A stretch of DNA of 64,000 bases from a virus, in the IMG/VR virus record IMGVR_UViG_3300025168_000033, positions 1-64,000 of that record; one strand, written 5' to 3'. The position numbers and the translations under genes are program-made. A model generated the notes under the pieces. It made no database searches and was not told the DNA's origin. It saw only the letters and a list, made by a program, of their open reading frames with translations. Positions 1,180 to 63,578 of the stretch are shown in pieces. Within the stretch, counting starts at the first letter, position 1. Each line of letters opens with the position of its first letter.

Positions 1180-1569
1180 TTATTTGATATAATTTGAATC
1201 TATGTCTTTTTCTGCGATAAAGTAAAGTACTGGATTGTCACCTACAGATAATAACATATCACCTTCAAATTCAAATATTTTCCAATTTGAATTGAAGCCT
1301 GTAGATTTGTCTCTAAGAGTTCCACTCATAATTTCTTTACCTCTCATATGCGGTGGAACTGTTAATCCATAATCCATTTGTCGCATTTGATCTACTTTAG
1401 CACCCATGTATTTTTTAACAGCACTTTTTAATGCAGTACCTCTACCATATGCTCTGCTATCATCTGTAAATGTTTCTAAGCCACCATTGTGTGCATGTGG
1501 ATTCCACCAGCCCCTGTATGTAGTTTTAGCTTCATTCAAAAATTCTTTATATGTAGGTACGTTTTTCAT
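1180..1569 (-). CDS. putative capsid-targeted internal protein
   Basis: leader MKNVPTYKEFLNE. Confidence 0.75.
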   Translation of the reverse strand: MKNVPTYKEFLNEAKTTYRGWWNPHAHNGGLETFTDDSRAYGRGTALKSAVKKYMGAKVDQMRQMDYGLTVPPHMRGKEIMSGTLRDKSTGFNSNWKIFEFEGDMLLSVGDNPVLYFIAEKDIDSNYIK

Positions 1570-1589
1570 ATTATCCGAGCTTGTTTTTA

Positions 1590-1919
1590 TTAATCCATTG
1601 CTAAATCTACTCTAACATTTTTGTATTTCTTAAGCAGCTTTTTAATATTGAATCGTTTTTCTAATTGTTTGAAGACGTTAATTTGAATAATTCCAGCCAT
1701 CCAGGTATTACCCCATCCAATATTGTATCTTACAGTTCCCGGCTCATCACTATAAGTCAATTTAAAACCTGTATCTGTAGGTTCTGCAGCTGACTCTGAA
1801 TCCATTTTAAATGCCTCATAACCTAGGTCTTTATTGATTTTATCAAGGAGATTTAGTGTGTCCTTGTTAGTTAGTTTTGATTCGTTTAAAAATTCTTTGT
1901 ATGTACGTATGTTTTTCAT
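1590..1919 (-). CDS. putative capsid-targeted internal protein
   Basis: leader MKNIRTYKEFLNE. Confidence 0.75.
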   Translation of the reverse strand: MKNIRTYKEFLNESKLTNKDTLNLLDKINKDLGYEAFKMDSESAAEPTDTGFKLTYSDEPGTVRYNIGWGNTWMAGIIQINVFKQLEKRFNIKKLLKKYKNVRVDLAMD

Positions 1920-2254
1920 AATGTGTTTATGATTTGATTTGCAATTGTTTTCATATCATCTCCAGAAATATAATTTCCAGTAGCATAACCACCAGTATTA
2001 ACATAGCTTTGCAATAGATTTACAATCCATTGAACATCTGTAGATGATAAATATTCACCGATTTCATTAGCAATTTTTTGAATGTCGGCTTCTGGAATAT
2101 AAAGTCCTTTTTCTGTTCTAAGAGTTGAATATGCATTAGTAGAATAATCACCTAATATGTATCTGACTCTTTTTTTATCTTTATTTTTGCCTTCGTTTAA
2201 TTTACCGTAAGTATTCAAAAATTCTGTGTATGTACTTATTTTTTTTACCTTCAT
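1916..2254 (-). CDS. putative capsid-targeted internal protein
   Basis: leader MKVKKISTYTEFLNTYGKLNE. Confidence 0.7.
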   Translation of the reverse strand: MKVKKISTYTEFLNTYGKLNEGKNKDKKRVRYILGDYSTNAYSTLRTEKGLYIPEADIQKIANEIGEYLSSTDVQWIVNLLQSYVNTGGYATGNYISGDDMKTIANQIINTL

Positions 2255-2279
2255 AGCGTAGCGTGTATTTAAGTTGTCT

Positions 2280-2332
2280 GTTATTAATTATTTATAGTTA
2301 AATATAAACAAAAAAATCGACAGTAAAAAATC
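2280..2332 (-). promoter_or_regulatory. early promoter repeat
   Basis: near-identical to 700-752. Confidence 0.8.
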
Positions 2333-2346: not shown

Positions 2347-2961
2347 TTATAGCTTAGGTATCCATTTTTGTTTTATTAATTTAGCATCCATTTTAATGTT
2401 TGCATGTTTCTTTACTAGGCTTTTTGCAATATCAATATTTTCTTTAGAATCATCAAAGAATTTAAAATCATTAAATCCAAGATCGATTAATTCTTTAAAT
2501 GCCATTTCCTTTTTCTGTGGAACAGTTCCTTTAAATTTATGTATCGGATCGTTTATTGCAAATATGAAATCATCATTGATATCAATTCCGTGATATAAAA
2601 AGAAGTCTTTAATTAATTTCTTTTCACCTCTAGCAGTAATAATTCCTACAGCCTTTCTTTTCTTTAATGTAGCTTTTAAAATATCAAATACCCATTCAAT
2701 AAGTTTACCAGCTTTTAAGATTTCTAATGAATCAAAATCATCATAGTTTGTTTCATGATATGACATCTTTTCATAATCATTAAATTGCTGTGGAGTTAAT
2801 TCAAATCTTTCACCAGTCTTTGTATCATGAACCTTGATTTTTGCTTTAGTCAGGACCAGAGTGTCATCTACATCAAATACATTAATTGAATTACGACGCT
2901 TTGGATCTAGAAATTTATATTTCTTGCGTTCAGTTAAATATTGTTGAAATCTTAAAAACAT
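2347..2961 (-). CDS. HAD-superfamily phosphatase with divergent capsid-targeting leader
   Basis: FDVDDTL (motif I), TAR (II), FFDDS (IV); leader MFLRFQQYLTE. Confidence 0.75.
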   Translation of the reverse strand: MFLRFQQYLTERKKYKFLDPKRRNSINVFDVDDTLVLTKAKIKVHDTKTGERFELTPQQFNDYEKMSYHETNYDDFDSLEILKAGKLIEWVFDILKATLKKRKAVGIITARGEKKLIKDFFLYHGIDINDDFIFAINDPIHKFKGTVPQKKEMAFKELIDLGFNDFKFFDDSKENIDIAKSLVKKHANIKMDAKLIKQKWIPKL

Positions 2962-3203
2962 TACTTTTTTCTTTCTATTGGTTTACCTTTATTTGGCCCA
3001 TGACGATGAATATAACTTGAAGTACCAGTTTTAAGTTGTCTTACTAGTCTTTTACGTTCTTTATCTAATGGAATTATTTTACCTTCCTTTCTATCCATGT
3101 AAATATCATGGATTTCTTTCTCTAGCTCTTTAATTCTTTTAGCAATTTCATCATCGGATTTATCTTCGTTCAAGAATTCGTTAAATGTCGGTATATTTTT
3201 CAT
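2961..3203 (-). CDS. putative capsid-targeted internal protein
   Basis: leader MKNIPTFNEFLNE. Confidence 0.75.
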   Translation of the reverse strand: MKNIPTFNEFLNEDKSDDEIAKRIKELEKEIHDIYMDRKEGKIIPLDKERKRLVRQLKTGTSSYIHRHGPNKGKPIERKK

Positions 3204-3212: not shown

Positions 3213-3659
3213 TTATTTATTTCGTTCTGGATTTGATACACTATTTTTCTTAGCATCAATAACCCATTTTGCATTACTAGCTGAAGTTGCATTTGATATT
3301 TGTTTCAAACTTTTCATAACAGCCTTATAGTTGTTTTCATCTTCCCTTCCTTTACCTCTAAAGATTTGAATATGATGTGGATCCATTTGTCTTTCTTTTG
3401 CTGGAATCAAATATCCAACAAAAGAATCAAGATGTTTGTCTTTTTTACTTGTATGCCAAACTTCGTAATGTATTTGTAATTCATCACCAATTTCGACTGT
3501 ATCTGGACTGTCTGGAGCAGCATCATAAAAAGAACTAGTAACTGTATATGTTCCATGAACATCAAAATCATGTTCTTTTTCATTCTTAACTTTAGGCTTA
3601 AAAATATTCTTTACAAAACCTTCGCTTAGAAACTCGTTAAATGTTGGTATATTTTTCAT
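3213..3659 (-). CDS. putative capsid-targeted internal protein
   Basis: leader MKNIPTFNEFLSE. Confidence 0.75.
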   Translation of the reverse strand: MKNIPTFNEFLSEGFVKNIFKPKVKNEKEHDFDVHGTYTVTSSFYDAAPDSPDTVEIGDELQIHYEVWHTSKKDKHLDSFVGYLIPAKERQMDPHHIQIFRGKGREDENNYKAVMKSLKQISNATSASNAKWVIDAKKNSVSNPERNK

Positions 3660-3660
3660 A

Positions 3661-4035
3661 TTATCCTGTTATTGATTTTTTGTCATCCTTGATATACTCT
3701 TTGATTAAATCTAGCAATAAACCTAGATCATCATATCTTCCAGCAAAACCACTATGAATTATTCCAAAGCCGTCTCTACGATAAAGTGTAGTTGAATCGA
3801 TATCAATAACTACATTACCTGTAGCTTTTACATATCCTTTTCTAGTAGCTACATCATACCATAACCAAACCTGATCGTCGTTAATTTCTACAGTATATGA
3901 ATTTTTTGCATTTGATTTGAATTTCTTTTCAATAAAACCAGCAAGATCCTCTATTGATGTTACATCAGCAAATCTAGTATTGTTTGTTATTTTTGCCTCA
4001 TTAACAAATTCATTGTATGATGGTACGTTTTTCAT
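3661..4035 (-). CDS. putative capsid-targeted internal protein
   Basis: leader MKNVPSYNEFVNE. Confidence 0.75.
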   Translation of the reverse strand: MKNVPSYNEFVNEAKITNNTRFADVTSIEDLAGFIEKKFKSNAKNSYTVEINDDQVWLWYDVATRKGYVKATGNVVIDIDSTTLYRRDGFGIIHSGFAGRYDDLGLLLDLIKEYIKDDKKSITG

Positions 4036-4271
4036 TTTATAGTTTTTAATTTTCGTTTTAATACTTTTAATCTTAGCCTTTGGAATCTTGTCAATTCCTT
4101 AGTAAAGATATATTCATCCACCTTGAAAAAAATTAAGGATCCTACAAGATTTGCAATAAATGCAGTTATCCAAAAGTTTGAAATATCATACTTGGATAAT
4201 ATAAATGGGATGATTGCCAAAATAGGCGTGCTCATTTGCCACCTAAACATATATCTAAGTAATTTTCTCAT
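4032..4271 (-). CDS. small two-TM membrane protein
   Basis: two hydrophobic segments and a basic tail; no leader. Confidence 0.6.
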   Translation of the reverse strand: MRKLLRYMFRWQMSTPILAIIPFILSKYDISNFWITAFIANLVGSLIFFKVDEYIFTKELTRFQRLRLKVLKRKLKTIK

Positions 4272-4981
4272 AAATCTTCTAAATCTAAAAATTGTAATGC
4301 TTGTTTGTATGTACGAGCAGATTCTCCAGTTTTAGCTTTAGCTGCTGCTAAAACTATTGCCATTGCTTCTTTACGTTTTGATCCAAATTTTACTTTCTTA
4401 ACAGTTTCTATTGCGGCTAATACTTCTGGATCAGCAGCTTCATTAACCTTAGATTTATTAAACCAAGCATCAAAATTATTATCATCAAAATCATCAGGGA
4501 ATGTAGTAGATATTCCATCTTCATCCTTTAATTCTATTTTATCTAATGCGGCTTTTGTTACAATAAATATATCACCTTCATCATCACGGAATTTATCACC
4601 TTTTTTAATAGGTGTTCCTTTATATGTTATTTTTTCTTTTAATAATTTACCTTCAGCAGCTTCATTAACCTTAGATTTAATTTTTTCAAGATCAGCTTTA
4701 GCCTTTTCAATATCCTTTTTAATAAACTTAATAGTTTTTGGATTTGTTTCTGCTGCTAATTCTTTATTTAAATCGATAAGATACATTGCAAGATTGTTCA
4801 TATCTCTTTGTGCTCCTTCGTTTAGAAATTGTTCGTAGGTTGGTAAATTTTTCATCTTAACGTTATCTGTCCATTTTTTATCAAATGCCCATTTGTATTT
4901 TTCAGGTGCATCTTCCTTAGTTTTATATTTACCTCTAAGAGCATATATCAATTTTAATTGCTGTTTACTTTTAGCTGGCAT
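4268..4981 (-). CDS. multi-module internal protein with an internal leader at Met43
   Basis: MKNLPTYEQFLNE starts at nt 4855; KSKVNEAA occurs twice. Confidence 0.7.
   Translation of the reverse strand: MPAKSKQQLKLIYALRGKYKTKEDAPEKYKWAFDKKWTDNVKMKNLPTYEQFLNEGAQRDMNNLAMYLIDLNKELAAETNPKTIKFIKKDIEKAKADLEKIKSKVNEAAEGKLLKEKITYKGTPIKKGDKFRDDEGDIFIVTKAALDKIELKDEDGISTTFPDDFDDNNFDAWFNKSKVNEAADPEVLAAIETVKKVKFGSKRKEAMAIVLAAAKAKTGESARTYKQALQFLDLEDL
4431..4679. repeat. 27-bp direct repeat at 4431-4457 and 4653-4679
   Basis: tcagcagcttcattaaccttagattta occurs twice and encodes KSKVNEAA. Confidence 0.9.
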
Positions 4982-4983: not shown

Positions 4984-5382
4984 TTATACTTTTATTATTT
5001 TTTGATCATAACCTACTCTAAAATCAGCACCTCTATATAAAGTTATAACAACAAATGACAAAGTATTTTTATTTTTCTCCATCACACCAACAATAGTTAA
5101 TCCATCAGATTCTCTTCTTAAGATAAATCTATCTTTATTAACATCCATATTATCGTCAACAAGGTCGTTTATAATTGCTACAGTAGCTTTACTTATTACC
5201 GCGTTAACTTCTTTAAATGTAACAGGCTCATATACTGAATTTCCAGTCTTATCTTTTCTAGTAAGTCTTTCTATTGCATGAGTTGTTGACTCAATATCTA
5301 TATCAAATTTAATCTTTCTAGATACATGCCCTTCAGCCTTTTCATTTAATTTAAATTGATTATATGTTGGAATATTCTTCAT
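4984..5382 (-). CDS. capsid-targeted protein, possible RelE/DUF4258-like RNase fold
   Basis: leader MKNIPTYNQFKLNE; THAIERLTR and VVITLY motifs. Confidence 0.55.
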   Translation of the reverse strand: MKNIPTYNQFKLNEKAEGHVSRKIKFDIDIESTTHAIERLTRKDKTGNSVYEPVTFKEVNAVISKATVAIINDLVDDNMDVNKDRFILRRESDGLTIVGVMEKNKNTLSFVVITLYRGADFRVGYDQKIIKV

Positions 5383-5385: not shown

Positions 5386-5655
5386 TTAAATTACAATTAC
5401 GGATTTAAAATCTGCAGCTAACGCACCATACCATCCAGATGTTCCTCCATGGTAAATATCTTCTAGAACACTTACATCAATTTCAATCGAGTATACTTTC
5501 GTTTTATCAGACCATGAGAAGTCTTTATATAATTCCCAGCCTTCATCCTTAATAAATTTTTTAAATTCTTCATACTCCTTTAGTTTATAAAAAGCCAAAG
5601 TAATTGTATTTTTAGCCTCATTCAAAAATTCGTTATATGATGGTATGTTTTTCAT
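5386..5655 (-). CDS. putative capsid-targeted internal protein
   Basis: leader MKNIPSYNEFLNE. Confidence 0.75.
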   Translation of the reverse strand: MKNIPSYNEFLNEAKNTITLAFYKLKEYEEFKKFIKDEGWELYKDFSWSDKTKVYSIEIDVSVLEDIYHGGTSGWYGALAADFKSVIVI

Positions 5656-5681: not shown

Positions 5682-7451
5682 TCATTTTATAGCTATGCTT
5701 ATATTTCTAGAAGTTTTTTGTGTAGACTCGGTTTGCTTATTTTTAAAATGGCTTGCAAATACTGAAGAACCACCAGCCTGATTAAATATTTCTTCTATAG
5801 CAGCATTAGATACTTTATCTCTATCACCTTCATCACCGGGTTTAGTGCTGTTCATTCTACTTGCATCATATTCGGTATATTCAACTTTATATTTAGTTGG
5901 AAGTGTTATTTCAATATCCATGTCGTAATAATCATCATCAATTAATTTTACTGTACCGACATCACTTTTAATAACCTTATTTCCAGCAAATTGATTAAAA
6001 TCCGTCTTTGCCTTTACGTCTTTATATGCAGCAGATATTAACGGATCTTTAATATAATCCATATTATTTAAGCCTAATTCAATTACAAATTTAACCTCAT
6101 TTCTAGTTGAACTTAATATTCTTGTATTTGAAATATATTTTGTAAAGACATTAAAAAGTGGCATTTGCATATTTTGAAATGCTTCAGCATCAGTTATTCT
6201 AGAACCTGGATATTTCTTTTTAAATTCTGCTACAGTAATTTTAGAAACAATCTTAAATTGCATTCTATCATTAATTGATAACGTATCAAACGGAGAATTT
6301 AAGAAATCCATTGCTGAATCTGCTTTAGTAGTTCCCCATGCGCCACCGCCACCTTTAATAGATTTTGTAAATTCTCTAAGTGCATCATCACCTTCTTCAC
6401 CAGGTATCATTACATCGACTTCATAATCTTTAGCTTTAGGTGATACAATAATTTCCTGTTGATTCCAAAAACTATGATCGACTGGTAGATTTCTTAAGTC
6501 TGCTACTACTTGATCTGGATTTACCTTCCATTTTAATAGCATATAATATCCGCCTTTACGATCTTTAATGAAATCCTGATCAGTCATAAAACTTGCTGCA
6601 GTTCCTCGATCTATTGAAAAGCTAGTAGCCTTTCCTTGTGATACTCCTGGCTTTGCACCAGGATACCATTTCTTACTCCATTTTACTAGGTCCTTGATTT
6701 TAGCACCATCATAAAATATTCCTCGATAAACATATTTTGGAAGTTTAGATGAATCTACTGAAAGTTTTTGTAACAAAGGAAATACTTCAGGTTTTAATCT
6801 TTTACGGCTCATGCTTGTCCAGGTAACAACATGTGACATTGCAATTTTTACATCACGTTCGCTCAATCCAACCTTAAGTAACATTTTATCATATTGCTTT
6901 TGACCTAGATTTTTAGCACCATCTAAAGCGGTTGATGTCCATTTAAGAATATCTGTTACTTTATTCCAGTTTTTTTCTAGCCAATCAATAAATTCAATGC
7001 CACCTTCAAGTTCAGTTATTATATCACCAAAGTCCTGACCCGGTAATTTAAACGATGAGCCATACTTTTTTGAAATTTCCTCTTTAAACGTTTTAAATGT
7101 TTTGTGCTTTATTATTTGTTTAGCTAAATCATCATGACCATACCAGCTCCAGTTTTTATTATATCCTGCTATAATCTTAGCATAAGTCCAGTTTGCTTTA
7201 CTAGATGTGCCTTTCAATGTAAATATTGTATCAGAACCCTTGAGTTTTCCGGCTTTAGATAAAGCTTGATTTTTAATTTTTTCTTGAACTTTATATCCTT
7301 CACGGGTATCTATTTGTGGATTCCATTCGTCTTTACCCCAATCAACCCCTTTAGAATAATCCGATAAATATTCCGGATTATTCTTAAAGAATTCTACTGC
7401 TTTATTTTTTTCAGTTATTAGCCAATCGTTATAGTTAGGTAAATTTTGCAT
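5682..7451 (-). CDS. capsid-targeted ADP-ribosyltransferase-like protein (Alt analogue)
   Basis: leader MQNLPNYNDWLITE; VYRG, TSFS and QQE match the R-S-E ART motifs. Confidence 0.65.
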   Translation of the reverse strand: MQNLPNYNDWLITEKNKAVEFFKNNPEYLSDYSKGVDWGKDEWNPQIDTREGYKVQEKIKNQALSKAGKLKGSDTIFTLKGTSSKANWTYAKIIAGYNKNWSWYGHDDLAKQIIKHKTFKTFKEEISKKYGSSFKLPGQDFGDIITELEGGIEFIDWLEKNWNKVTDILKWTSTALDGAKNLGQKQYDKMLLKVGLSERDVKIAMSHVVTWTSMSRKRLKPEVFPLLQKLSVDSSKLPKYVYRGIFYDGAKIKDLVKWSKKWYPGAKPGVSQGKATSFSIDRGTAASFMTDQDFIKDRKGGYYMLLKWKVNPDQVVADLRNLPVDHSFWNQQEIIVSPKAKDYEVDVMIPGEEGDDALREFTKSIKGGGGAWGTTKADSAMDFLNSPFDTLSINDRMQFKIVSKITVAEFKKKYPGSRITDAEAFQNMQMPLFNVFTKYISNTRILSSTRNEVKFVIELGLNNMDYIKDPLISAAYKDVKAKTDFNQFAGNKVIKSDVGTVKLIDDDYYDMDIEITLPTKYKVEYTEYDASRMNSTKPGDEGDRDKVSNAAIEEIFNQAGGSSVFASHFKNKQTESTQKTSRNISIAIK

Positions 7452-7471: not shown

Positions 7472-7480
7472 TTATATATC
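7472..7480 (-). promoter_or_regulatory. putative late promoter GATATATAA
   Basis: 21 nt upstream of the first gene of the cargo cluster. Confidence 0.7.
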
Positions 7481-8270: not shown

Positions 8271-8747
8271 TTAAGATTTCTTATTTTTATCGATCCATGC
8301 ACGAAGTATTTTTGCAGCTTCTTTCATTTCAGGAGTTTTATGCTCGTGAGTTTTAGCTTTAGTTTCCATACTTGTAGCTATTGACATTGCGTGACTATGG
8401 TCTTTTTTCTTTAATTTGTCTATCTTTTCAACAGTTCTTTTTGCTGTTGCTGCATCTTTATAACCTACACCTTTTATTGCGTTAGGACCTGCTTCAGCCC
8501 ATTCATCAAGTTCTTCAGTAACATCATCAGCTTTATCTATATTGATATAATCATCAACAGCTCTTAAATAGTTTTTAGCTAATGTAATTTTAGATTGAAT
8601 CCATGCAGGCAATTCAGCTTTACCATCAAGTTTTTTCTGTATAGATATAGCAGTATCACAACATACTTGTAATTGACTCATTGCCATATTGATTTCGTCA
8701 CCTTCATTTAAAGATAAAAATTCTTCGTACGATTTTAAATTGTCCAT
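8271..8747 (-). CDS. putative capsid-targeted two-module protein
   Basis: leader MDNLKSYEEFLSLNE; acidic VTEELDE linker. Confidence 0.7.
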   Translation of the reverse strand: MDNLKSYEEFLSLNEGDEINMAMSQLQVCCDTAISIQKKLDGKAELPAWIQSKITLAKNYLRAVDDYINIDKADDVTEELDEWAEAGPNAIKGVGYKDAATAKRTVEKIDKLKKKDHSHAMSIATSMETKAKTHEHKTPEMKEAAKILRAWIDKNKKS

Positions 8748-8765: not shown

Positions 8766-9368
8766 TTACCAAGGATCATTTGTTTTTAATCCTAATTGTT
8801 TCCAGAACTTATGCACATTACAGCTCCACCAGCCAGATGCATACATGTTAGTTTTTTTGCTACATCCATGACGAGCCAAGAATGCTTTTCTTCTTGAAGG
8901 ATCTTGATGCTTTTGTCTAATATCATCATTGCCCGATCCAGTATCTTCACCAAATCCAATAGCTACAGCTTTAACTAATCCAGTTTCAGGATCCTTCTTG
9001 CCATCTTTATGCGGACGATATACTACAAACAATTTTCCAGGTTCATCCTTTCTTCGAATATGTGGATCATCAAGAGTAACTTCAGTTTTTTTACCTTTGA
9101 TAGTTAATGTTCCTTTCTTCCCAGTTTGTAATTTTTCTACTATAAATGTATCTTCCTCAGATAAATGAATTTTATTAGCTTCGTGTAATTCTCTTAATTC
9201 ATTAACAAAATCTAAATAAGAATCCGAGCCAATTCTAAAAATCGATTCAGATATATCTAGATTGTTTTCTATATGATATTTAATATTCTCGTTTAACGAT
9301 TCAGTATATGAATTGTAAGATTCATTTAAATCGAGACGTGAATATTCAGTAAAATTTAAAAATCTCAT
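8766..9368 (-). CDS. putative virion protein with FG...FxARHxC...WWSC C-terminal domain
   Basis: divergent leader MRFLNFTEY...LNE; C-terminal motif recalled from T4-like phage proteins. Confidence 0.6.
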   Translation of the reverse strand: MRFLNFTEYSRLDLNESYNSYTESLNENIKYHIENNLDISESIFRIGSDSYLDFVNELRELHEANKIHLSEEDTFIVEKLQTGKKGTLTIKGKKTEVTLDDPHIRRKDEPGKLFVVYRPHKDGKKDPETGLVKAVAIGFGEDTGSGNDDIRQKHQDPSRRKAFLARHGCSKKTNMYASGWWSCNVHKFWKQLGLKTNDPW

Positions 9369-19988: not shown

Positions 19989-20339
19989 TTATTTAAGTGT
20001 TAAAATACTATCTTTTATTGTAGCATGTAATTTCATCATTTGAGGACCTCTATCAATTCTTGATATTTTATCATCAAGATCCAGATATACTGAAAGTTTT
20101 TCATTTCTCATTATTTCTGGAAAGCTATCTAGTCTTGATTGTTGAGATTCTATAACATATTTTATGCTATCAATTAATTCAATTGTAACTATTTCCTGTC
20201 TTTCAAATTTTGAAATAGTTCTTGATTTACTGCAAGATTTTAAAAAGAATATTCCTAAAAGTATTGCTAGAATATAGACTTTATATTTATTGAGTATTTC
20301 TTTAATTTTATCCATGGTAATTACCTTTTTTATTTTCAC
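19989..20339 (-). CDS. membrane-anchored protein
   Basis: single TM followed by KSC; start may be Met9. Confidence 0.55.
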   Translation of the reverse strand: MKIKKVITMDKIKEILNKYKVYILAILLGIFFLKSCSKSRTISKFERQEIVTIELIDSIKYVIESQQSRLDSFPEIMRNEKLSVYLDLDDKISRIDRGPQMMKLHATIKDSILTLK

Positions 20340-20508
20340 CTTTAGGAGTATAATGCTTTAATGTAGCATCAAAATAATCCTCTTCGTCACATACACAATC
20401 CGTTATTGGCAATTCGCATCTTTCACAAATAGGTTCAAGAGAGGAATCTGATTTTTTATCATCAGATTCCTTTATAAATTCATTAAATTTCTTATAGGTC
20501 CTTGACAT
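20308..20508 (-). CDS. small Zn-finger protein with capsid-targeting-like leader
   Basis: MSRTYKKFNEFIKE; CERC...CVC; late promoter at 20522-20530. Confidence 0.6.
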   Translation of the reverse strand: MSRTYKKFNEFIKESDDKKSDSSLEPICERCELPITDCVCDEEDYFDATLKHYTPKGENKKGNYHG

Positions 20509-37737: not shown

Positions 37738-37800
37738 AATTTTATTGTTATTTTAGTTTATATATCATTTGTATGATTTGAAACTTTCATGTATGTGCAC

Positions 37801-41208: not shown

Positions 41209-41580
41209 TTATTTCTTTTTTATGTCATCATGTTTAGGCTTTGGTCCTTTACCTTTTAACCAATCTGCAATATCTTTATCCGCAGTTTTATATGCAGTTC
41301 CTTTTTCTGTAAATACCGTCATTCTAGCATTACCCCATGCATTAAATGCAGCCGGCTTTCCTAGCTTTTTTATGTGTGGTCTTACAGCACCCCAGTTAGT
41401 AATTGCTGCACCATATCCTCTTAAAAATGCTGCCATTAATGCATATTCTAAATCTTTTGCATTTTTAGCTCCTAATGATTTTTGTAATTTTGGATCTTTT
41501 GAAAGTTTTTCTGCTCTTGATTCTGCTGCACTTTGCTTTGCTTCATTCAAGAATTCATCATACGATTGTAAATTTTTCAT
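41209..41580 (-). CDS. capsid-targeted protein
   Basis: leader MKNLQSYDEFLNE. Confidence 0.75.
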   Translation of the reverse strand: MKNLQSYDEFLNEAKQSAAESRAEKLSKDPKLQKSLGAKNAKDLEYALMAAFLRGYGAAITNWGAVRPHIKKLGKPAAFNAWGNARMTVFTEKGTAYKTADKDIADWLKGKGPKPKHDDIKKK

Positions 41581-44838: not shown

Positions 44839-45426
44839 TTATTTTTTTTGAGCTAAATAACCTTTAATTGCATCTATTGCATTATCATCGCCCATTGTAT
44901 ATCCAAGGCCAACAAATTTTCCAGTATCAACTTTTTTACCGTTTAATGATAATGTCCACGTTGTGCGTTGACCCATTTCTTTATAGTGGTCACTCCAAGC
45001 CTCACCTCCAGATACTTCAGTATACTTCCATTTATCTCTACCCCATTTAGCTTCAAAATAATAATCAGTATCATCATAATCATCTTTTGTGATTTTGATT
45101 TTATCATGCTTAGGTTTTTCTTTATTAATTTTATCGACTTTACCATATTTTTTCTCTAGGCCTTCAATATATTCAACAAGTTCTTTTTCATATTCTATTG
45201 TTAACTGCATATTAGTATCCCAACGGTTTGGCTCGTTATTCAATAAATTAATACTAAATTCAACACCACGCTGATAATATTTGTAGACTTTAAGAATTTT
45301 ATTTTTTTCTTTTTTAAAAGTAACATAAAGATCCTCATTGTAATTGGCATCTTTTAATGCTGCTAAAACTGAATTTATTTTAACAGCTTCATTTAAAAAT
45401 TCATCGTATGATTGTAGATTCCTCAT
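44839..45426 (-). CDS. capsid-targeted protein
   Basis: leader MRNLQSYDEFLNE. Confidence 0.75.
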   Translation of the reverse strand: MRNLQSYDEFLNEAVKINSVLAALKDANYNEDLYVTFKKEKNKILKVYKYYQRGVEFSINLLNNEPNRWDTNMQLTIEYEKELVEYIEGLEKKYGKVDKINKEKPKHDKIKITKDDYDDTDYYFEAKWGRDKWKYTEVSGGEAWSDHYKEMGQRTTWTLSLNGKKVDTGKFVGLGYTMGDDNAIDAIKGYLAQKK

Positions 45427-45428: not shown

Positions 45429-46127
45429 TTATTTTGTTACTTTTCCTACGACTTTATAGATATATCCTTTATGACCATCTCTCATTCGGGCTTCTCCTTC
45501 GTTTTTTCTTTCTGTTATTTTGAATTTTGCACTACCAAAAATATTTTTGAAATATTCCATAGCAAGCTTTACTACATGGAATCCTTCTAATTCAGTTTCT
45601 ATTTCTTTTTCGTTTTTCTTGATTTCTGAACTGGATTGTGTATCACCATGTCCTTTTTCGTAATGTATCCAGGTCAAGACAAAATCACTAATATTAAATA
45701 TATATTCTTCCTTCTTTTCATCATATTTAAACATGACGTCATTACTATTGCCATATTGATATTCCTTGTTTTTGATGCCTTCTATCATTTCAGCAATCTT
45801 TCTATCTAGGTCGATTGATTTGCCTTCTTTACCATCAGGTGACATGAAAAAAACTTTTCTTCCTTTCTTTGCTGCTATTAGCTCACCATGTTCAACCAAT
45901 GAATCCACCCATTCATATCCATATTGAGTACCTCGATTAACCTTGAAATGATTTCTAGGAAGTTCTTTTACTTTACCTGAAAGAATATCTTTTACCGATT
46001 GAATCCAGCCTTCTAAATAAGTTGATCTTTTATGATTGCTTCTTAATGCATTATAATAGTCATCCATACTGGATCTTTTATAATAGCTCTCGTTTAAAAA
46101 TTCGTCGTACGATTTAAAATTTTTCAT
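45429..46127 (-). CDS. capsid-targeted protein
   Basis: leader MKNFKSYDEFLNE. Confidence 0.75.
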   Translation of the reverse strand: MKNFKSYDEFLNESYYKRSSMDDYYNALRSNHKRSTYLEGWIQSVKDILSGKVKELPRNHFKVNRGTQYGYEWVDSLVEHGELIAAKKGRKVFFMSPDGKEGKSIDLDRKIAEMIEGIKNKEYQYGNSNDVMFKYDEKKEEYIFNISDFVLTWIHYEKGHGDTQSSSEIKKNEKEIETELEGFHVVKLAMEYFKNIFGSAKFKITERKNEGEARMRDGHKGYIYKVVGKVTK

Positions 46128-55690: not shown

Positions 55691-56098
55691 TTAGTATGCA
55701 AGTTTAATTTCTAATGCTTGTCTTTTTTTGATAGCTTTTTCTATTTTATCGTCTATGGCATTTAATTCATTACCATATCTATTTGCATCATCATCGGTCC
55801 AATCGTCTCCTTTTTGACCAGCTTCATTTTCCATGTCTGAAAAAATTTCACTTTTGTTAGAATATAATTCTTTGAGGTCTGCAATAATATCATCAAGCTC
55901 ATCTTCAATAGCTTGTCTTTTCTTACCATATACTCTCTTTTTCATTCGTTGCTTATAGTATTGCTTATAGTCTGCCATTTTCTTTTCACGTTCCATTTTA
56001 GCGGCACGAATAGCAATAAGTACTGGATCATTATTTGATATTTCATTTAATTCATAAGATTCATTTATGAAATCATCAAAAGACTCAAAGTTTTTCAT
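55691..56098 (-). CDS. capsid-targeted helical protein
   Basis: leader MKNFESFDDFINESYELNE; late promoter at 56118-56126. Confidence 0.75.
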   Translation of the reverse strand: MKNFESFDDFINESYELNEISNNDPVLIAIRAAKMEREKKMADYKQYYKQRMKKRVYGKKRQAIEDELDDIIADLKELYSNKSEIFSDMENEAGQKGDDWTDDDANRYGNELNAIDDKIEKAIKKRQALEIKLAY

Positions 56099-56192: not shown

Positions 56193-57869
56193 TTAATATA
56201 TTCCGTATTGAGAGAATATACCAAAAGTAATATAGTTTGTTTCTGGGTGATGTCCAGCTTCAACTAATGCGAATCTAGATTTAACCGCAATTTTAGGAGC
56301 CATTGTTCCTTCAGCGATAGTTTCTACTGATTCAGCCATTAAGTAAGGCATGAATACCAATCCAGGTGAATTACCATCTCCTTTTCTTCCAACTAATACT
56401 CTGTTGTCAGACCAAGCCATGTTAGGATCAACATAAACAGCTACACCTCCAATTGTTCCAACTGGGTAAAGTGAACCACCTACTTGATTTAAAGTATTTG
56501 CCATTGGCGCAGCGATAAAACCAGCACTATCTTGTAAAGCAGTAGCGATTTGACCGTTTGTTACCATGAAGTTAGCATTACCTCTTCTTCCTCTGATAGC
56601 AATCATGTTAGCACAAGCAAGAACCTTACTAAAGATCTTTCTTTGTCTTGTATGAATGTTTTCTGAAGTAGATATAGTAGTACCTTCAGTTGCAGGAACA
56701 GGAGTAGTAAAATCACCTACTCTGTTAGCTCCAGTAGAATCAATTGCAGATCCAAAAGAACCAATTGCAGTTGTAGTATTAGATAAGTTCAAGTGGAAAT
56801 GAACATTTTGAGTTTTAGAAATATTTGCATGGTTTTTAACACCTAATTTAAACAATCTTTCTAAGATGTTTTTGTTGATTGATTGAGTCAATTCATTTGC
56901 AAGAACAGCTTCAACCTGAGCAACAGCATCAACACCAAATTGTTTTAAATCTTGAACTTGTTCTCTTGTAACTGCAGCAGCAACTTGGAAAGTTTTAGCT
57001 TCAACAGATTGATTGAACAATGTCAAGTTCATGATATTATCTTGAGTTGTTTCACCAGCATCTCTTGAATAAGGATCATTAGATCCATAAGAATTACCAG
57101 AGAATCCAGTAATATGATCTTCTAGAGATTTTACTAATGAAGCAGCAGAAGTTTGATCAGCTCCGTCTTGAACACCAACTGCGGTTGCAGAAGTAGCAGC
57201 ATAAACAGCCCATGAACCATCAATACAATCAGCAATTGAAGGAGCAGTAGTAGTATTACCTACACTATAAACATTACCAGTAGCAATAGTACCAGTAGAA
57301 ATTACTTCAAAGATACTAAATCCATCAATTCTAGAAGTTCCTAAGAATTTAGAATAAATTGCGTTAGCATTGTTACCAGTTGTTCCAGCAGAAGCTAAGA
57401 AGTGATTATCATTAACAACAAGAGTTGAATCAGTAGTATCAACCTTGATTATAGCAGGATTATTATCAGTTCCTTTAGCATCCAATTTTCCACCTCCGTA
57501 AACGAAGTCTAAATAAGTTAAAACACCCATTGGTCCAGGCATTGGTATAACTGGTACTAGGTCTAAACCTACAGTATTTGCAGCAACTTGCATTGCTAAA
57601 GGTAATAAAGTGTGAGCTTTATCTCCTGATCCTTTTACACCACCGGCAAAACCGTCTTGTGATCCTGGGGGTCCAGGGAATTTTGTTGCTCCCATTCCGT
57701 TTACACCACCTAAAGTTGCGTAAGCGTTGTTTTCGTAAAGCTCATGGTTATGACAGTATTTTGACATCCATTCAACAGTATTACGGTCTTTAATTCCCGT
57801 AGTAGACTCGATGATCGGTGCCCATTTACTCATAACCTCAGCTTCGTTAATCATTTTATGTCCGTACAT
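56193..57869 (-). CDS. gp23: major capsid protein
   Basis: KWAPI, LVPVIPMPGP, VEAKT, QDLK, FMPY and KSRFAL. Confidence 0.95.
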   Translation of the reverse strand: MYGHKMINEAEVMSKWAPIIESTTGIKDRNTVEWMSKYCHNHELYENNAYATLGGVNGMGATKFPGPPGSQDGFAGGVKGSGDKAHTLLPLAMQVAANTVGLDLVPVIPMPGPMGVLTYLDFVYGGGKLDAKGTDNNPAIIKVDTTDSTLVVNDNHFLASAGTTGNNANAIYSKFLGTSRIDGFSIFEVISTGTIATGNVYSVGNTTTAPSIADCIDGSWAVYAATSATAVGVQDGADQTSAASLVKSLEDHITGFSGNSYGSNDPYSRDAGETTQDNIMNLTLFNQSVEAKTFQVAAAVTREQVQDLKQFGVDAVAQVEAVLANELTQSINKNILERLFKLGVKNHANISKTQNVHFHLNLSNTTTAIGSFGSAIDSTGANRVGDFTTPVPATEGTTISTSENIHTRQRKIFSKVLACANMIAIRGRRGNANFMVTNGQIATALQDSAGFIAAPMANTLNQVGGSLYPVGTIGGVAVYVDPNMAWSDNRVLVGRKGDGNSPGLVFMPYLMAESVETIAEGTMAPKIAVKSRFALVEAGHHPETNYITFGIFSQYGIY

Positions 57870-57897: not shown

Positions 57898-59736
57898 TTA
57901 AATTTTGTTTGTTTTGAATCGTTTTGCTAATCCTTCAGTAACTGCATCCATATAAGAACTTGTAACTTTAACTTCGTTTATCGATTCAGAATTTGCAATT
58001 GCAGATTCATTAATCGGTTGAATTATTTCAGATCTCAAATCTCTTGTCGACCAAAAATGATCGATTTGATATTGTGATTCTAAAACACTAACAGAAGCTT
58101 GTAATTTAATTTCTTCTTGTTTGCTTTCACTTAAAGAATCATAAGACTCTTTATATTTAGCTGGGATATTTTCCAACCAATTTAAAACTTTAGGTTCGGG
58201 TGTTGTTGCTGATTCCCATATTCTTTCAACATCTCTAGTTCCGAAGTATTTGTTATTTTTAAATGCAAGTATCAAGTCACCTTGAGAGCTTTCATTTAAT
58301 TTTGCAAATTCACTTCTCTTAGATTCCGTTACAAAATGTAGGAAATGCAAGTCCTTATCTTCAGTTACTGCTTTTTGCTTCTTAGCAGATTCAAGTAAAG
58401 TATTTATCTTAGTACTGATATCATTCTTAAAGTTATCATTACTTTCTATAATTAAATTTTCTTTAGGTTCCGATTGCTTACTTATTCTACCATTACCTTC
58501 ATTAATTAATTTTGCACCGTTAAGTTCAGCAAAATTTTCATTAATATCGTTAATAGAATGTTCGGTATATGAACCTAGAGTTTCTAGATTTTCTTTAATA
58601 TATTCAGTAAAATTAGCAACATGTTCCATGTTCTCAACAATATAATCGTTATGAGAAATAAGAGTATCTACTGATTCATTAATTGTAGTTTGATATTCAA
58701 ATCTTGAATTAACTTCTTCACTAATGTGTTTAGAATATTCAATTGAATTATCAACTGATTCAGCAACCATTTTACTATATTCGATTGAATTATCAAGGTT
58801 TTCAGCCAATGATTTACTATATTCAATTCCTTGATCGGTCTTAAGAGCAACCAATTCACTATAATCTTTAACTGATTCAAGACCTTCAACAATATAATCA
58901 TTATGTGCAATTAGGTTGTCTGTATTTTCTTCAACCTTATTGATTTTTGAATTCATTGAATTTACTTCCTTAGCAATAGTTTCAACCCACTCTACAATTT
59001 GTGATTGTTCCTTTGTATTATTAGAAGGTATATCAGATTCGTTTATAGATTTGATTGATTCCTGGATCTTATTGAATTGTTCAGTGATATATTTTGAATA
59101 TTTATCGAACTGATCCATTGAGATGAATGATTCACCTTTAGTTTCGTTTATTGCAACTTCTGGTGCGTCAACTTGAGTTAAACCGTTATTTGTGTTATCC
59201 ATTTCAAATATTTGTATTGTATCGTCGTTTTGTAAGCCAAATGATTCATTGACTCTGTTTAATTGTGCATTTTCAAATCCTGGATCTGCAACCAAATCAT
59301 AAGTAAATAATCTTTTAACTTTTACATGATTATTTGATTCAACAACACCAGCTGCTCTAGATGAAATATGTATTGGAACTCCTGCATCAACTAATGCCTT
59401 TGCTTGTTTTCCAGCATCAGTATCAAGTAGCTTAATTCTACCTCTTACTTGTTTTGAAGATTTATCGTAAGATATTTCTTCTATAACATGTGATACATTT
59501 TTTAATGATACTTCGAATTGTTTTGGATGATCCAGTTCTCCTAGAATTTTTCTATCTTTAACTTTTTTAGCTAATTCTTCCACATGAGGAACAAATTCAG
59601 CTTCATCGTAAATTCGATTGTTTTTATTTTTTGTGCCTATTTCCGAAAAAATTCCTTCCAGTATATAATCGCCATTAGCGGTTTTCTGGAATTCTGCCTC
59701 AGAAACTGATCTTTCAAGAATCAGTAAGTTTTTCAT
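57898..59736 (-). CDS. gp21: prohead protease gp21 fused to a gp22-like scaffold
   Basis: NKNNRIY, GELDHP, ISSRAAG and DLVADPG, then a coiled coil with nine [ILV]NE sites; ATG 59736. Confidence 0.88.
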   Translation of the reverse strand: MKNLLILERSVSEAEFQKTANGDYILEGIFSEIGTKNKNNRIYDEAEFVPHVEELAKKVKDRKILGELDHPKQFEVSLKNVSHVIEEISYDKSSKQVRGRIKLLDTDAGKQAKALVDAGVPIHISSRAAGVVESNNHVKVKRLFTYDLVADPGFENAQLNRVNESFGLQNDDTIQIFEMDNTNNGLTQVDAPEVAINETKGESFISMDQFDKYSKYITEQFNKIQESIKSINESDIPSNNTKEQSQIVEWVETIAKEVNSMNSKINKVEENTDNLIAHNDYIVEGLESVKDYSELVALKTDQGIEYSKSLAENLDNSIEYSKMVAESVDNSIEYSKHISEEVNSRFEYQTTINESVDTLISHNDYIVENMEHVANFTEYIKENLETLGSYTEHSINDINENFAELNGAKLINEGNGRISKQSEPKENLIIESNDNFKNDISTKINTLLESAKKQKAVTEDKDLHFLHFVTESKRSEFAKLNESSQGDLILAFKNNKYFGTRDVERIWESATTPEPKVLNWLENIPAKYKESYDSLSESKQEEIKLQASVSVLESQYQIDHFWSTRDLRSEIIQPINESAIANSESINEVKVTSSYMDAVTEGLAKRFKTNKI

Positions 59737-59819
59737 ATTTGTAGGTTTATTTTTAGCTTGGCTATTTGTTATATATATCAAGTTCACATTTACAAATGTG
59801 GTATCATTTTATAATACTT

Positions 59820-61418
59820 TTAAAAACCATCGTCATCCGATGTTAATTTTGCTTTCTCTGCCATTTCTTTCTCCTCTCTCTCTTTTAATTTAGCATTTAA
59901 TTTCAAATCATCCGCGGATAATCCAAGATATTTTCTAACTAAGAATTCAGATGAAAAGAATTTTGATTCATTCATATCAGCATCAGTATCAACTAATCCG
60001 TCTTTCATTGTTTGAATAAAATTGATTTCTTTCTCTAATACTTCCATTTCCTGCATCTTAATAAACATATTATTCTTCTGATATACTATACCTATTTGCT
60101 GTTTAAAATTATCATCATTGGCTAATTCTGGAAAGTCTAAGGCCATTTGTTGCCATAAAGGTTTTACAAGTATTTCTTGGAATTGTGTTCTCATACGATC
60201 AATAAAACGACCAAATTTTAACTCATCTCTAGTAGCACCTTCAGCCTGCATTTCCCATGATGGCGGCGATTCCTGATCAAATCTAGATAAAGGAATCTTA
60301 GTAACTTTATGAAATTCTTCTCTAAAATATCTAATTGCATCCGTATCACTTAAATCAGGACCATCATTTGCAAGTGTTTCAATTTCTGGTTGACCTGCAT
60401 CATTAGATGGTAACCAGTATTCCTTATTGAAAGGCATCATAGGTTTTCCATTTACCTGCAATTCACCAGATTCTACATCAAAATCCATTACTTCACGATA
60501 AGATTGCATTAGTACTCCTAATGATTGTTTTGCTCTAGTTTTTGATTTACCTCCTACTGGAATTATAAATTTAGTTTTAAATGATGAATTTACAACAGAC
60601 CATATAATTCTGGAATGTTCCATGATTCGTAAGATATTAAATGTTCTTACTAATCGTTCTACATAACTTACACGTCCAGGTGAATTAATTTGAGAATAAG
60701 AAAGATAAATTACTTGAGAATCATATAGTTCTCTTTGTTTTCTTACGTCACCTTTAAATTGAGTCCACATTTTCTTACCATCACTGTCTAGACCAGGCTC
60801 AATTGATGAGGGGTCTATTTCTTTGAATCCAATGATGTTTCTCATGTTCTTATCATAAATGATTTCAAACGCAAGATATCCATCAATCAACCATTTTCTA
60901 AAAAAGTTCCATGCAGAAATATCGTTATTGAATCCAAAATATTGATAGATTTTTTTGAAATTAGTTTGTACTGCATCAGAGATTTTCTTGTTAACATCAA
61001 CGGTAATTAATTCATCATCAAATATTTTTGGATATGCAAAGAAATTGGTTGCATCATATACAATAGCTTCATCCGCAAGTACATCCAATACATCTTCAAT
61101 TTTATCCTGAACAGAAAAGCGTCTTAAGTCTTCTCTTTTCTTTACATAGTTTCTATCATAAATAGAAATATTTTTACGAAGATTTATATCTGCCATTGAA
61201 AGATTAGCAAACATTCGATATTCATCATATTCGCCACCCATAAGGTTTGCCTGATCATATCGCCAACCATATTCATCTTCAGTAATACCGATAGATCTGG
61301 AATTTCTTAATACCATATCGTCATACTTCATTCCAAATGAACTAAGCTTCTTAATGAATTTTGTTACTGGATTTTTACTTTCCAAATAACTACCATTCCT
61401 ATTTACAAATCCTGACAT
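59820..61418 (-). CDS. gp20: portal protein
   Basis: FRKWLIDG, SYVE, EYWLP, IETL and RDELKF. Confidence 0.95.
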   Translation of the reverse strand: MSGFVNRNGSYLESKNPVTKFIKKLSSFGMKYDDMVLRNSRSIGITEDEYGWRYDQANLMGGEYDEYRMFANLSMADINLRKNISIYDRNYVKKREDLRRFSVQDKIEDVLDVLADEAIVYDATNFFAYPKIFDDELITVDVNKKISDAVQTNFKKIYQYFGFNNDISAWNFFRKWLIDGYLAFEIIYDKNMRNIIGFKEIDPSSIEPGLDSDGKKMWTQFKGDVRKQRELYDSQVIYLSYSQINSPGRVSYVERLVRTFNILRIMEHSRIIWSVVNSSFKTKFIIPVGGKSKTRAKQSLGVLMQSYREVMDFDVESGELQVNGKPMMPFNKEYWLPSNDAGQPEIETLANDGPDLSDTDAIRYFREEFHKVTKIPLSRFDQESPPSWEMQAEGATRDELKFGRFIDRMRTQFQEILVKPLWQQMALDFPELANDDNFKQQIGIVYQKNNMFIKMQEMEVLEKEINFIQTMKDGLVDTDADMNESKFFSSEFLVRKYLGLSADDLKLNAKLKEREEKEMAEKAKLTSDDDGF

Positions 61419-61420
61419 TA

Positions 61421-62014
61421 TTATCTTGTTTTATTTATATATTCAATAAATAATTTGTCTCTTTCGGCTTCTCCGAGCTTGACAAAATTAGGGTTATTAA
61501 TTAACATTGCGCTTGCCCAAACATCTATATTATTTGAAAAAACGTATGAATTACTTATTCTTTTATTTATGTATTTTCTTGTTGCAAATCCAATACCATA
61601 TTGTTTATATGTCGCCATAAATGATTTAGGTGAAAATTTATTATATGACTGATCTCTTGCTGGGGTGTTTCTTTTGCTGTTATAAGCACTTCCATATCGT
61701 GTCCAGAATGCATCTATAAATTGATACTTTATTTTTTCTGGAAAAAAGTTTAAATTAACACCAATATCCATAAAACCTTCAGCTGACATTAATTCATCAA
61801 TCTTTATTATGAGTGGGTTAGTATTCCAATATGCTAATTTATCTCGAGTCTTTGGGTCATAATAATTAAACGAATATAATCTACCATATTGCATACGACC
61901 ATTAGTTGATCCAATTATTTTACCTCTCGCACCGTCGCCTTTAGCTTTAGATGCCCAACCAGAAGCATCAAATTTTGAGCCTTTAAGATCGTTAATTTTT
62001 CTAGCCATTTCCAT
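61421..62014 (-). CDS. gp2: DNA end protector
   Basis: GRLYSFNYYDPK, LAYW, GVNLNFFP and RKY. Confidence 0.8.
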   Translation of the reverse strand: MEMARKINDLKGSKFDASGWASKAKGDGARGKIIGSTNGRMQYGRLYSFNYYDPKTRDKLAYWNTNPLIIKIDELMSAEGFMDIGVNLNFFPEKIKYQFIDAFWTRYGSAYNSKRNTPARDQSYNKFSPKSFMATYKQYGIGFATRKYINKRISNSYVFSNNIDVWASAMLINNPNFVKLGEAERDKLFIEYINKTR

Positions 62015-62022
62015 ATTATCAA

Positions 62023-62496
62023 CTATTTGAATCCATTAAAAAATCCTTCAGTAACAATCTTAAAAATATATCCGCGACTATCACACCATTTTTTAGCTGC
62101 GGCAAACTTTGCCATATTTAGAATATATTGTTCAGACAAATATTTAAAGTTTTTAATTGTTTTAGGAGTTTTTCTTTTAGGTTGTTTAGGTTTTTTAATT
62201 TGAGCTTCCGGCTTTACTTCTATTACAAGTTTCTTACCATCATCCAATAACATAAAGAAATCTGGATGATATTTAGAATACTTTTCTCTTAGTGGATTCC
62301 AATATTTTATTTCAAACGGTTCAGATGACCATTTAATTACTTTAGCATTTGATTCACAATAAATACAAAATTTTTGTTCCCAGCTACTTCTATAAATAAT
62401 AGGACCGTTACCAATATATTTAGCACATTCATTCAACGGAAAATATCCTTGTTTGAATCTGGATTTTTTGGTTGGCTTATTATTCTTTATGCTCAT
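62023..62496 (-). CDS. gp4: head completion nuclease
   Basis: QGYF, KYIG, YRSSWE, WSSE, YHPDF and EVKP. Confidence 0.93.
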   Translation of the reverse strand: MSIKNNKPTKKSRFKQGYFPLNECAKYIGNGPIIYRSSWEQKFCIYCESNAKVIKWSSEPFEIKYWNPLREKYSKYHPDFFMLLDDGKKLVIEVKPEAQIKKPKQPKRKTPKTIKNFKYLSEQYILNMAKFAAAKKWCDSRGYIFKIVTEGFFNGFK

Positions 62497-63578
62497 ATTT
62501 TAATATCACCTATTGACGCACCAACTCGAGTTTGAGCTGCATCTCCCCATTCAATTTGATTATTAAAATATGTGCTTGTAAATTTGTGTATTTGTTCAAA
62601 ATTTGAATCTTTACAATTTAATGTACACAAATGTTTTCTGTCATTAGTAGTAGTAAATAGCCAATCAAATCTTTCTTCTCTATAATATCCGTCTAAATGA
62701 ATAGCGGTTATAATTGCTTTAAGTTTATTACTTGCCTTTGATGAATTCGCTTCGTTTATGAATACAGTACTAATATAATTTACAGTTGTTTTTGATAATA
62801 ATTCGTTACTAGCGGTATAATTAGATAATGCTACTATAAGTTTTTTAGTAAGGAGCTTTGTTTGATTTATATCTAATTTTTGAATTGTATCTGAAAAAGT
62901 TTTGGCTAAATCAAGTAATGCACCTGGCCCAAATGATTTAGTTTTAGATTTCCAAGAAACACCATGAGGTTTAAATGCCTTCTGTATTTCTGATTCAGAT
63001 TTAGACCAGTTTTTAGTATTTTTTGTTCCGCCAAGACGACCTCTACGTTGCTTAACTTCGATCAATTCATTATTTGGACCTTTTATATCACCACCAGTTG
63101 TAGAATTACTAAAATGTGATAGCATACAATAATATAATTCTGTACGACCGACTACTGGTAATCCAAGCCCTGATAATTCTATTAATTTTTCAAAGAATTT
63201 TTTATCAAATAAATGAGCAAAATGATTTTCTATTTCTGCTAACGGTATATGACCGCCATTAGTTGGATTTAATTTAAATTCATTTTTTGATGGATTAGCT
63301 AACCAATTTAATAAGTCATTATCATTACCAATAAAATGTTTTTCCATAAGATTTAATATAACAGGTATATTAGATTTAGGAATTTTTTTATCATCCAAAA
63401 AATTACCTATTGGTCCTTTTAGATCTGGTATCAGTATATTTTTAATTTGAGTAATCTTATTAGAATCTTTAGTTGTATCTAATTGTCCTAATGTTATTTG
63501 ATCGTTTTTTATTGTATCTAAATTAACATAATTCAATGCCTCGGATAAAAACTCACTATAATTTTTGTATCTTCCCAT
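62493..63578 (-). CDS. capsid-targeted PD-(D/E)xK nuclease-like protein
   Basis: leader MGRYKNYSEFLSE; GRTE, GD and IEVK; late promoter at 63593-63601. Confidence 0.6.
   Translation of the reverse strand: MGRYKNYSEFLSEALNYVNLDTIKNDQITLGQLDTTKDSNKITQIKNILIPDLKGPIGNFLDDKKIPKSNIPVILNLMEKHFIGNDNDLLNWLANPSKNEFKLNPTNGGHIPLAEIENHFAHLFDKKFFEKLIELSGLGLPVVGRTELYYCMLSHFSNSTTGGDIKGPNNELIEVKQRRGRLGGTKNTKNWSKSESEIQKAFKPHGVSWKSKTKSFGPGALLDLAKTFSDTIQKLDINQTKLLTKKLIVALSNYTASNELLSKTTVNYISTVFINEANSSKASNKLKAIITAIHLDGYYREERFDWLFTTTNDRKHLCTLNCKDSNFEQIHKFTSTYFNNQIEWGDAAQTRVGASIGDIKI

Follow-up and report, generated by a model that had tools for sequence, protein, structure and literature searches.

Why should a large set of unrelated phage proteins begin with the same 13 residues? 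The question is raised by the first 64 kb of IMG/VR virus record IMGVR_UViG_3300025168_000033 (here called the window; the whole record is 166,532 bp), part of the genome of an uncultured T4-like phage, in which genes of otherwise dissimilar sequence start with the pattern MKN[ILV]x[ST][YF]x[EDQ]F[LV]NE or a close variant. This leader is probably a capsid targeting sequence (CTS) of the T4 type, with a proposed late course of loading, cutting and ejection. The approximately 34 otherwise unrelated proteins that bear it would very likely form an unusually large and variable cargo in the capsid.

The leader sites were located by open reading frame (ORF) listing and six-frame motif scans, which found 23 canonical or near-canonical copies in the window, all on the minus strand. 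An earlier note on this DNA had counted about 27 tagged starts and had called four of them (2961, 9368, 20508 and 54903) divergent; 23 are clear, the copy at 20508 being near-canonical, and the starts at 2254 (MKVKKISTYTEFLN...LNE) and 9368 (MRFLNFTEY...LNE) may plausibly be divergent copies. The other two, 2961 (MFLRFQQYLTE, followed by a HAD-like body) and 54903 (MKLHSLNEHIELTE), do not convince and were rejected, since neither has the aromatic-x-acidic-Phe core. The start at 4855 is either genuine or residue 43 of an ORF beginning at 4981. The profile scan proposed in the same note, made with a position-specific scoring matrix trained on 21 canonical copies, gave 29 hits at or above 12 bits for the whole record and 0-1 in each of five shuffled proteomes; all 29 lie on the coding strand at ORF starts. 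Once a false hit at an internal Met (24710) is set aside, a relaxed N-terminal pattern finds 34 tagged genes on the coding strand of the record, where they make up ~13% of the bases, and 0 on the opposite strand. The leader is hydrophilic and acidic and ends in [LV]-N-E, with S, A or G mostly as the next residue. Similarity was said to stop abruptly after the Glu, and it does: averaged over pairs, nucleotide identity drops from 75% within the leader to 34-36% on either side of it, and BLASTP of the mature regions, all pairs, gave no match at E<0.01. The genes are listed below with protein lengths in amino acids (aa). The 23 canonical or near-canonical leaders begin at the upper coordinates of all entries other than 1916..2254 and 8766..9368, a slash marks the predicted cut, and GATATATAA is a nucleotide motif discussed further on.

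1180..1569, minus strand: tagged cargo gene, 129 aa, MKNVPTYKEFLNE/A
1590..1919, minus strand: tagged cargo gene, 109 aa, MKNIRTYKEFLNE/S
1916..2254, minus strand: variant leader gene, 112 aa, MKVKKISTYTEFLN..KLNE/G
2961..3203, minus strand: tagged cargo gene, 80 aa, MKNIPTFNEFLNE/D
3213..3659, minus strand: tagged cargo gene, 148 aa, MKNIPTFNEFLSE/G
3661..4035, minus strand: tagged cargo gene, 124 aa, MKNVPSYNEFVNE/A
4268..4855, minus strand: tagged cargo gene, 195 aa from the ATG at 4855; tag internal if the ORF starts at 4981
4984..5382, minus strand: tagged cargo gene, 132 aa, MKNIPTYNQFKLNE/K
5386..5655, minus strand: tagged cargo gene, 89 aa, MKNIPSYNEFLNE/A
5682..7451, minus strand: tagged cargo gene with an ADP-ribosyltransferase-like centre, 589 aa, MQNLPNYNDWLITE/K; GATATATAA 29 nt upstream
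8271..8747, minus strand: tagged cargo gene, 158 aa, MDNLKSYEEFLSLNE/G; tagged homologues in two related contigs
8766..9368, minus strand: divergent leader gene, 200 aa, MRFLNFTEYSRLDLNE/S; three cleavage-type motifs
20308..20508, minus strand: tagged cargo gene, 66 aa, MSRTYKKFNEFIKE/S; GATATATAA 22 nt upstream
37871..38515, minus strand: tagged cargo gene, 214 aa, MKNLQSYEEWLNE/S; GATATATAA 30 nt upstream; internal VNE/G and VNE/S
40351..40608, minus strand: tagged cargo gene, 85 aa, very basic (isoelectric point, pI, 10.6)
40617..41207, minus strand: tagged cargo gene, 196 aa
41209..41580, minus strand: tagged cargo gene, 123 aa; homologues in related contigs
41577..42242, minus strand: tagged cargo gene, 221 aa, short form MRYKNYNQFLNE/G
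44839..45426, minus strand: tagged cargo gene, 195 aa
45429..46127, minus strand: tagged cargo gene, 232 aa
46130..46564, minus strand: tagged cargo gene, 144 aa
46574..47041, minus strand: tagged cargo gene, 155 aa
54955..55671, minus strand: tagged cargo gene downstream of the capsid gene, 238 aa; tagged homologue in a related contig; internal VNE/S and LNE/G
55691..56098, minus strand: tagged cargo gene directly after the capsid gene, 135 aa; GATATATAA 28 nt upstream
62493..63578, minus strand: tagged cargo gene upstream of the portal block, 361 aa, MGRYKNYSEFLSE/A; GATATATAA 23 nt upstream

The repeat might be an element of DNA or RNA (a recombination cassette, a translation-initiation region or a series of recent gene-start duplications) with no function as a peptide, and T4-type phages are described (PMC2839356 and PMC4122927) as shuffling genes by way of short conserved regulatory cassettes, the promoter-early stem-loops (PeSLs). 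Codon identity among the leaders is 84% at positions 1+2 and 58% at position 3. The codons for Tyr, Leu, Asn, Phe and Ser alternate within the leader, Ser being written both as TCN and as AGC, and the peptide is retained across contigs that differ in codon choice. Because synonymous codons vary freely while the amino acids are kept, the leader is a selected peptide and not a repeated stretch of DNA. A DNA-level element is excluded by this codon analysis, and with identity at background level in both flanks the nucleic acid explanation as a whole retains almost no likelihood.

A function for such a peptide is known from T4, in which ipII and ipIII begin MKTYQEFIAE/A and ipI begins MKTFKEF...ITE/A (NC_000866). 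The N-terminal 10 residues of IPIII are sufficient for packaging; of these, 4 and 7 serve in targeting and 8 and 10 in processing (PMC9026906). Residues Y4, F7, I8 and E10 of T4 match the best-kept columns of the leader (Y/F7, F10, L/V11 and E13), with the common spacing Y-x-x-F-[IL]-x-E, and this match to functional residues argues for the earlier note's reading of the leader as a capsid-targeting peptide handled by a prohead protease. Both peptides are short N-terminal propeptides, known or predicted, that are common to unrelated and often basic proteins; both have the core aromatic-x-acidic-Phe-[ILV]-x-Glu, spaced as the experimentally mapped T4 residues are, and both end in a hydrophobic-x-Glu cut site. 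The leader differs by three additional residues, with MKN-[ILV]-x-[ST] preceding the aromatic residue, and by an LNE end in place of IAE.

The CTS of T4 is carried by IPI, IPII, IPIII and the Alt propeptide and is removed by gp21 (Mullaney and Black 1996, to the extent that it is related in PMC5694885 and PMC9026906). The T-even internal proteins are a diverse set in which the CTS alone is conserved (PMC3012670), and the CTS has been considered a possible general route by which T4-like phages pack varied proteins (PMC9026906). A scan of T4 found four N-termini of the form MKT[YF][QK]EF, namely the three ip genes and gp61.1. The earlier statement that T4 has only three internal proteins plus Alt is thus to be amended by a fourth CTS-like start in the T4 record. 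The gp61.1 product is a hypothetical protein of 54 aa, encoded beside the primase gene (NC_000866 18966-19130), and it begins MKTFKEF like IPI. Against these four N-termini stand 34 tagged genes in the 166 kb analyzed here and 26-43 in relatives, and the tagged genes are spread through late operons, whereas those of T4 lie at few ip loci.

Removal of the leader calls for a protease, and a T4-superfamily morphogenesis block lies within the window:

38546..40354, minus strand: T4-type large terminase, with tagged genes on both flanks
56193..57869, minus strand: gp23-type major capsid protein (PF07068, 6e-36)
57898..59787, minus strand: gp21-type S77 prohead protease-scaffold fusion, the protease being the N-terminal ~175 aa, with a long C-terminal scaffold region
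59820..61418, minus strand: gp20-type portal protein (PF07230, 2e-68)

Genes for tail sheath, tail tube, neck and DNA-end-protector proteins were also identified in the window. The terminase, gp20, gp23 and gp21-type S77 protease genes are thus shared with T4; differences from T4 are the fusion of protease and scaffold and the internal cut sites of some cargos. The protease domain matches PF03420 (6e-11) and PHROG 207, 'head maturation protease' (1e-37), and its gene adjoins the gp23- and gp20-type genes. The gp21-type cleavage that the earlier note had assumed therefore has an encoded S77 enzyme of that type (PF03420, PHROG 207), and the product of the fusion gene is likely responsible for removing the leader. 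Co-folding of the protease-scaffold protein with an 89-aa tagged cargo scored 0.00, which speaks neither for nor against this. All four near-complete relatives examined encode the fusion gene, and a single protease-scaffold gene is also annotated in Tenacibaculum phage PTm1.

The protease-scaffold ORF contains 11-14 motifs of the form [LIV][NST]E/[SAGN], and its density of 18 per 1000 aa (11 copies) is the highest in the genome, the proteome-wide value being 1.9 per 1000. The orthologues have 4-10 cut-type sites in the four relatives and 15 in PTm1, and all of them share a (K/N)RVNE/[SA] site just after the protease domain, presumably a point of self-cleavage. The N-terminal ...KWAPIIE/STTGIK of the capsid protein aligns with ...ITE/STGIK of PTm1 and ...KLNE/SFESIK of phage PAU. 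The strict form [LIV]NE/[SAG] occurs in untagged proteins at 0.23 per 1000 aa, as expected from composition, and inside tagged bodies at 1.85 per 1000 aa (8-fold enriched, P ~2e-7). The cut motif is specific to the head-associated set, because it is at chance level in untagged proteins and enriched in the scaffold and in tagged bodies; its presence in the scaffold, at the capsid propeptide site and in a polyprotein-like ORF bears out the cut-motif reading of the earlier note.

This same enrichment suits a different fate for the tagged proteins. The tag could load the prohead while most of its bearers were core or scaffold accessories that are chopped, expelled or inert, like T4 gp67, gp68 and gp22. 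About one third of the tagged bodies have internal sites, several of them 2-3, and the protein starting at 4855 has two identical KSKVNE/AA sites. The tagged 741-aa ORF at 82488-84713 of the record, beyond the window, has 7-8 sites, a motif density second only to that of the protease-scaffold ORF, and resembles a polyprotein or core protein. Processing of some cargos into modules is probable. Roughly two thirds of the tagged bodies are free of internal sites, which an origin as chopped core material would not lead one to expect, and further points on both sides appear below; altogether this fate for most of the set is unlikely, although it is the one rival reading of weight.

The timing of expression was examined by way of short upstream motifs. 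Of the 28 copies of GATATATA on the coding strand of the whole record, 21 are in regions upstream of genes, a strong enrichment. The motif GATATATAA precedes, by 22-32 nt, the starts of the genes for tail sheath, tail tube, neck and protease and those of eight tagged genes (7451, 20508, 38515, 56098, 63578, 89384, 96829 and 97960); examples on the minus strand are at 7472-7480, 37758-37766, 59771-59779 and 63593-63601. Both GATATATAA and GATATATA resemble the T4 late promoter TATAAATA, and GATATATAA is likely a late-promoter element. In the cluster at 37.8-47 kb the other tagged genes are flanked by those for neck, terminase and sheath. Late co-expression of the tagged genes with head assembly is likely, because GATATATAA is shared with structural genes and tagged genes are set between those for neck, terminase and sheath. 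Scans for sigma-70 promoters and terminators gave counts at or below shuffle expectation and are therefore uninformative on operon limits.

A shared N-terminus on unrelated bodies is also typical of systems in which a leader is recognized by a partner, such as a modifying enzyme of the radical S-adenosylmethionine (radical-SAM) type acting on ribosomally synthesized and post-translationally modified peptides, an export system or a chaperone. Some 40% of the genome lies outside the record and could include a partner enzyme. No radical-SAM gene is present in the 166 kb, however, and the leader, being hydrophilic and acidic, is not like a signal peptide. It ends in the three-residue motif that recurs throughout the scaffold and stands in the capsid propeptide, it matches the T4 CTS at experimentally defined positions, and the tagged genes lie in head and tail operons; a role as such a recognition peptide is accordingly very improbable.

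On the whole the bodies behind the leader are basic. The median pI of the mature cargos is 8.4, that of other genes 6.1, and basic bodies, as in the DNA-associated internal proteins of T4, speak against inert core parts. Homologues in two related genomes were found for only 9 of the 34 cargos but for 102 of 159 untagged genes (Fisher P=9e-5); those of the cargos are mostly tagged too. Turnover of the cargo set is high and much faster than that of structural genes, which would be unusual for parts of an assembly core and which recalls the highly variable cargo of T4 relatives.

An activity is suggested for the largest listed cargo, of 589 aa. A putative ADP-ribosyltransferase (ART)-like domain spans approximately residues 196-365, and Y242-R243-G244, S277 and Q331-x-E333 are invariant among 23 aligned homologues of 24-49% identity. 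On this alignment the protein bears an R-S-E ART signature. Its 57 full-length homologues keep the leader, with the consensus MRNLxxYExWLILE/K and an invariant E14. Conservation of an enzyme-like cargo with its catalytic signature intact is a further argument against a set consisting mostly of expendable core accessories. Like T4 Alt, the 589-aa cargo is a large multidomain protein that combines a cleavable N-terminal propeptide (here predicted) with an R-S-E type ART signature, and an ART-like fold may lie in its middle. Sequence similarity to Alt is not detectable, the best BLASTP match having an E of 0.05 over 14 residues, and membership of the Alt family was rejected on this ground. The 589-aa cargo has no Pfam or PHROG match, no match in a sequence search of the PDB, nothing significant in a Foldseek search of the whole model, and no tblastn match among GenBank phages. 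By its predicted features it is an analogue of T4 Alt and not a member of the Alt family. With tagged genes within late structural operons and a putative Alt-like ART among the cargos, the head-loading claim of the earlier note stands at the level of sequence.

The leader is spread through a lineage of uncultured phages. The exact pattern was found in 95 stretches from ~65 IMG/VR contigs, and 244 of 257 loose matches in those loci are at ORF starts. The strict core pattern occurs 30, 19, 7 and 10 times in contigs of 294, 246, 288 and 462 kb, and 0-1 times when it is read backwards in the same contigs; none was found in PTm1. A full census counted 43 tagged genes for the contig of 294 kb and 26 for that of 246 kb. 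No cultured phage carrying this exact leader was found. No papers on the leader, its scale or the PAU leader described next were found in the library searched, which is not complete, and two genome papers on T4 relatives do not discuss internal proteins.

Phage PAU (JQ362498) belongs to the same gp23-type capsid branch (36% identity) and has a leader of its own, MKT[LI]xxLYE[AS]KLNE/[AS], on at least 14 genes, including an annotated scaffold gene and two annotated as 'internal capsid protein'. As in the record, a shared leader, here ending KLNE/[AS], is found around the head module, and the capsid protein has KLNE/S; the differences are that the PAU leader (MKTLxxLYEAKLNE) has no Phe, that fewer genes are tagged, and that protease and scaffold are separate genes. 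The presence of the PAU leader on the scaffold gene is a point for tagged proteins as core components. In the giant phages phiKZ, 201phi2-1 and SPN3US many head-internal proteins are likewise cut after Glu by a gp21-related protease (PMC5694885, PMC7411985, PMC9026906), and a large protein cargo is delivered with the DNA. Their propeptides, by contrast, are long (often >100 residues) and not a common short tag, and N-termini are common to paralogue pairs only.

The course proposed for the leader as a CTS follows T4. The tagged proteins would be made late, and the leader, through the aromatic residue at position 7 and Phe at position 10, would have affinity for the assembling prohead core, which would be built from the scaffold half of the protease-scaffold protein. 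They would be enclosed as the gp23-type shell forms, and the S77 gp21-type protease would cut behind the Glu of [LV]-N-E. Freed in the head by this cut, the mature and often basic proteins would stay with the DNA, and at infection at least part of the set would exit with it. The ART-like protein could then act on host targets, as T4 Alt does.

Several points weigh against this course. Packaging, leader removal and ejection are argued by analogy. Several tagged proteins with internal cut motifs may be degraded core material and not delivered intact, and the 'internal capsid protein' labels in PAU are depositor annotation whose basis is not visible. As to effector roles, a Pfam search of all tagged window proteins gave none over cut-off, and PHROGs named no function for the ten largest window cargos. 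Direct support for an anti-defence or host-takeover role of the cargos is limited to the ART-like cargo and the high turnover of the set. Just one tagged protein has a Pfam match over cut-off, a cytidylyltransferase-like protein (PF01467, 7e-6) encoded at 84731-85585 of the record, outside the window, with tagged homologues in both related contigs. In a protein atlas the 361-aa cargo (62493-63578) falls in virus-only hypothetical clusters, with weak restriction-endonuclease-like leads at 0.80-0.81, in the range of chance hits, and nothing usable was found there for the 232-aa cargo (45429..46127). The 361-aa cargo also showed a structural match to the N-terminal part of RNA-ligase-domain viral proteins.

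The record has a G+C content of 30.7% and a CheckV completeness of ~59%, and because of that completeness it is probably a fragment of a ~280-kb phage genome. A simple gene call puts 192 of 194 genes on the minus strand; two related contigs show the same one-strand bias. The closest capsid protein is that of an uncultured 462-kb phage (56% identity), followed by those of the Lak Prevotella megaphages (40%), PAU and the Tenacibaculum jumbo phages (33-35%). The true host of PAU is Sphingobacterium, despite the name Sphingomonas phage (PMC3738902), and therefore all characterized relatives infect Bacteroidota, which is probably also the host group of this phage, unlike that of T4. A search of the window for tRNA genes found none. 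A TnsA-like endonuclease gene (PF08722, 2e-18) at 62023-62496, between a tagged gene and the DNA-end-protector and portal genes, looks like a mobile nuclease inserted in the head module. A fused HAD phosphatase/sugar-nucleotidyltransferase gene at 23706-25073 may bear on DNA or surface modification, and a PhoH-like gene is present at 28277-29005.

The mechanism itself is the known one of T4; what is new is the lineage and the scale, with an approximately ten-fold larger set, and further differences from T4 are the protease-scaffold fusion and some probably modular cargos. The chances are about even that the CTS is an ancient address label readable across the T4 superfamily, expanded here to 26-43 genes per genome (5-13% of bases), so that the head is the carrier of a fast-changing payload including ADP-ribosyltransferase- and nucleotidyltransferase-like enzymes and modular polyproteins cut at xNE, and the injected proteome is predictable from sequence. 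If the tag works as in T4, these phages would pack roughly ten times as many different proteins as T4 does, and candidates for injection by uncultured phages could be listed from a 13-residue motif alone. The list would serve as a ready inventory of candidate host-takeover and counter-defence proteins, which otherwise belong to the dark matter outside Pfam families. As a second targeting tag of natural origin, the leader might also be used for loading foreign proteins into phage capsids. The CTS would, if this is true, be old and common to phages of Proteobacteria and Bacteroidota.

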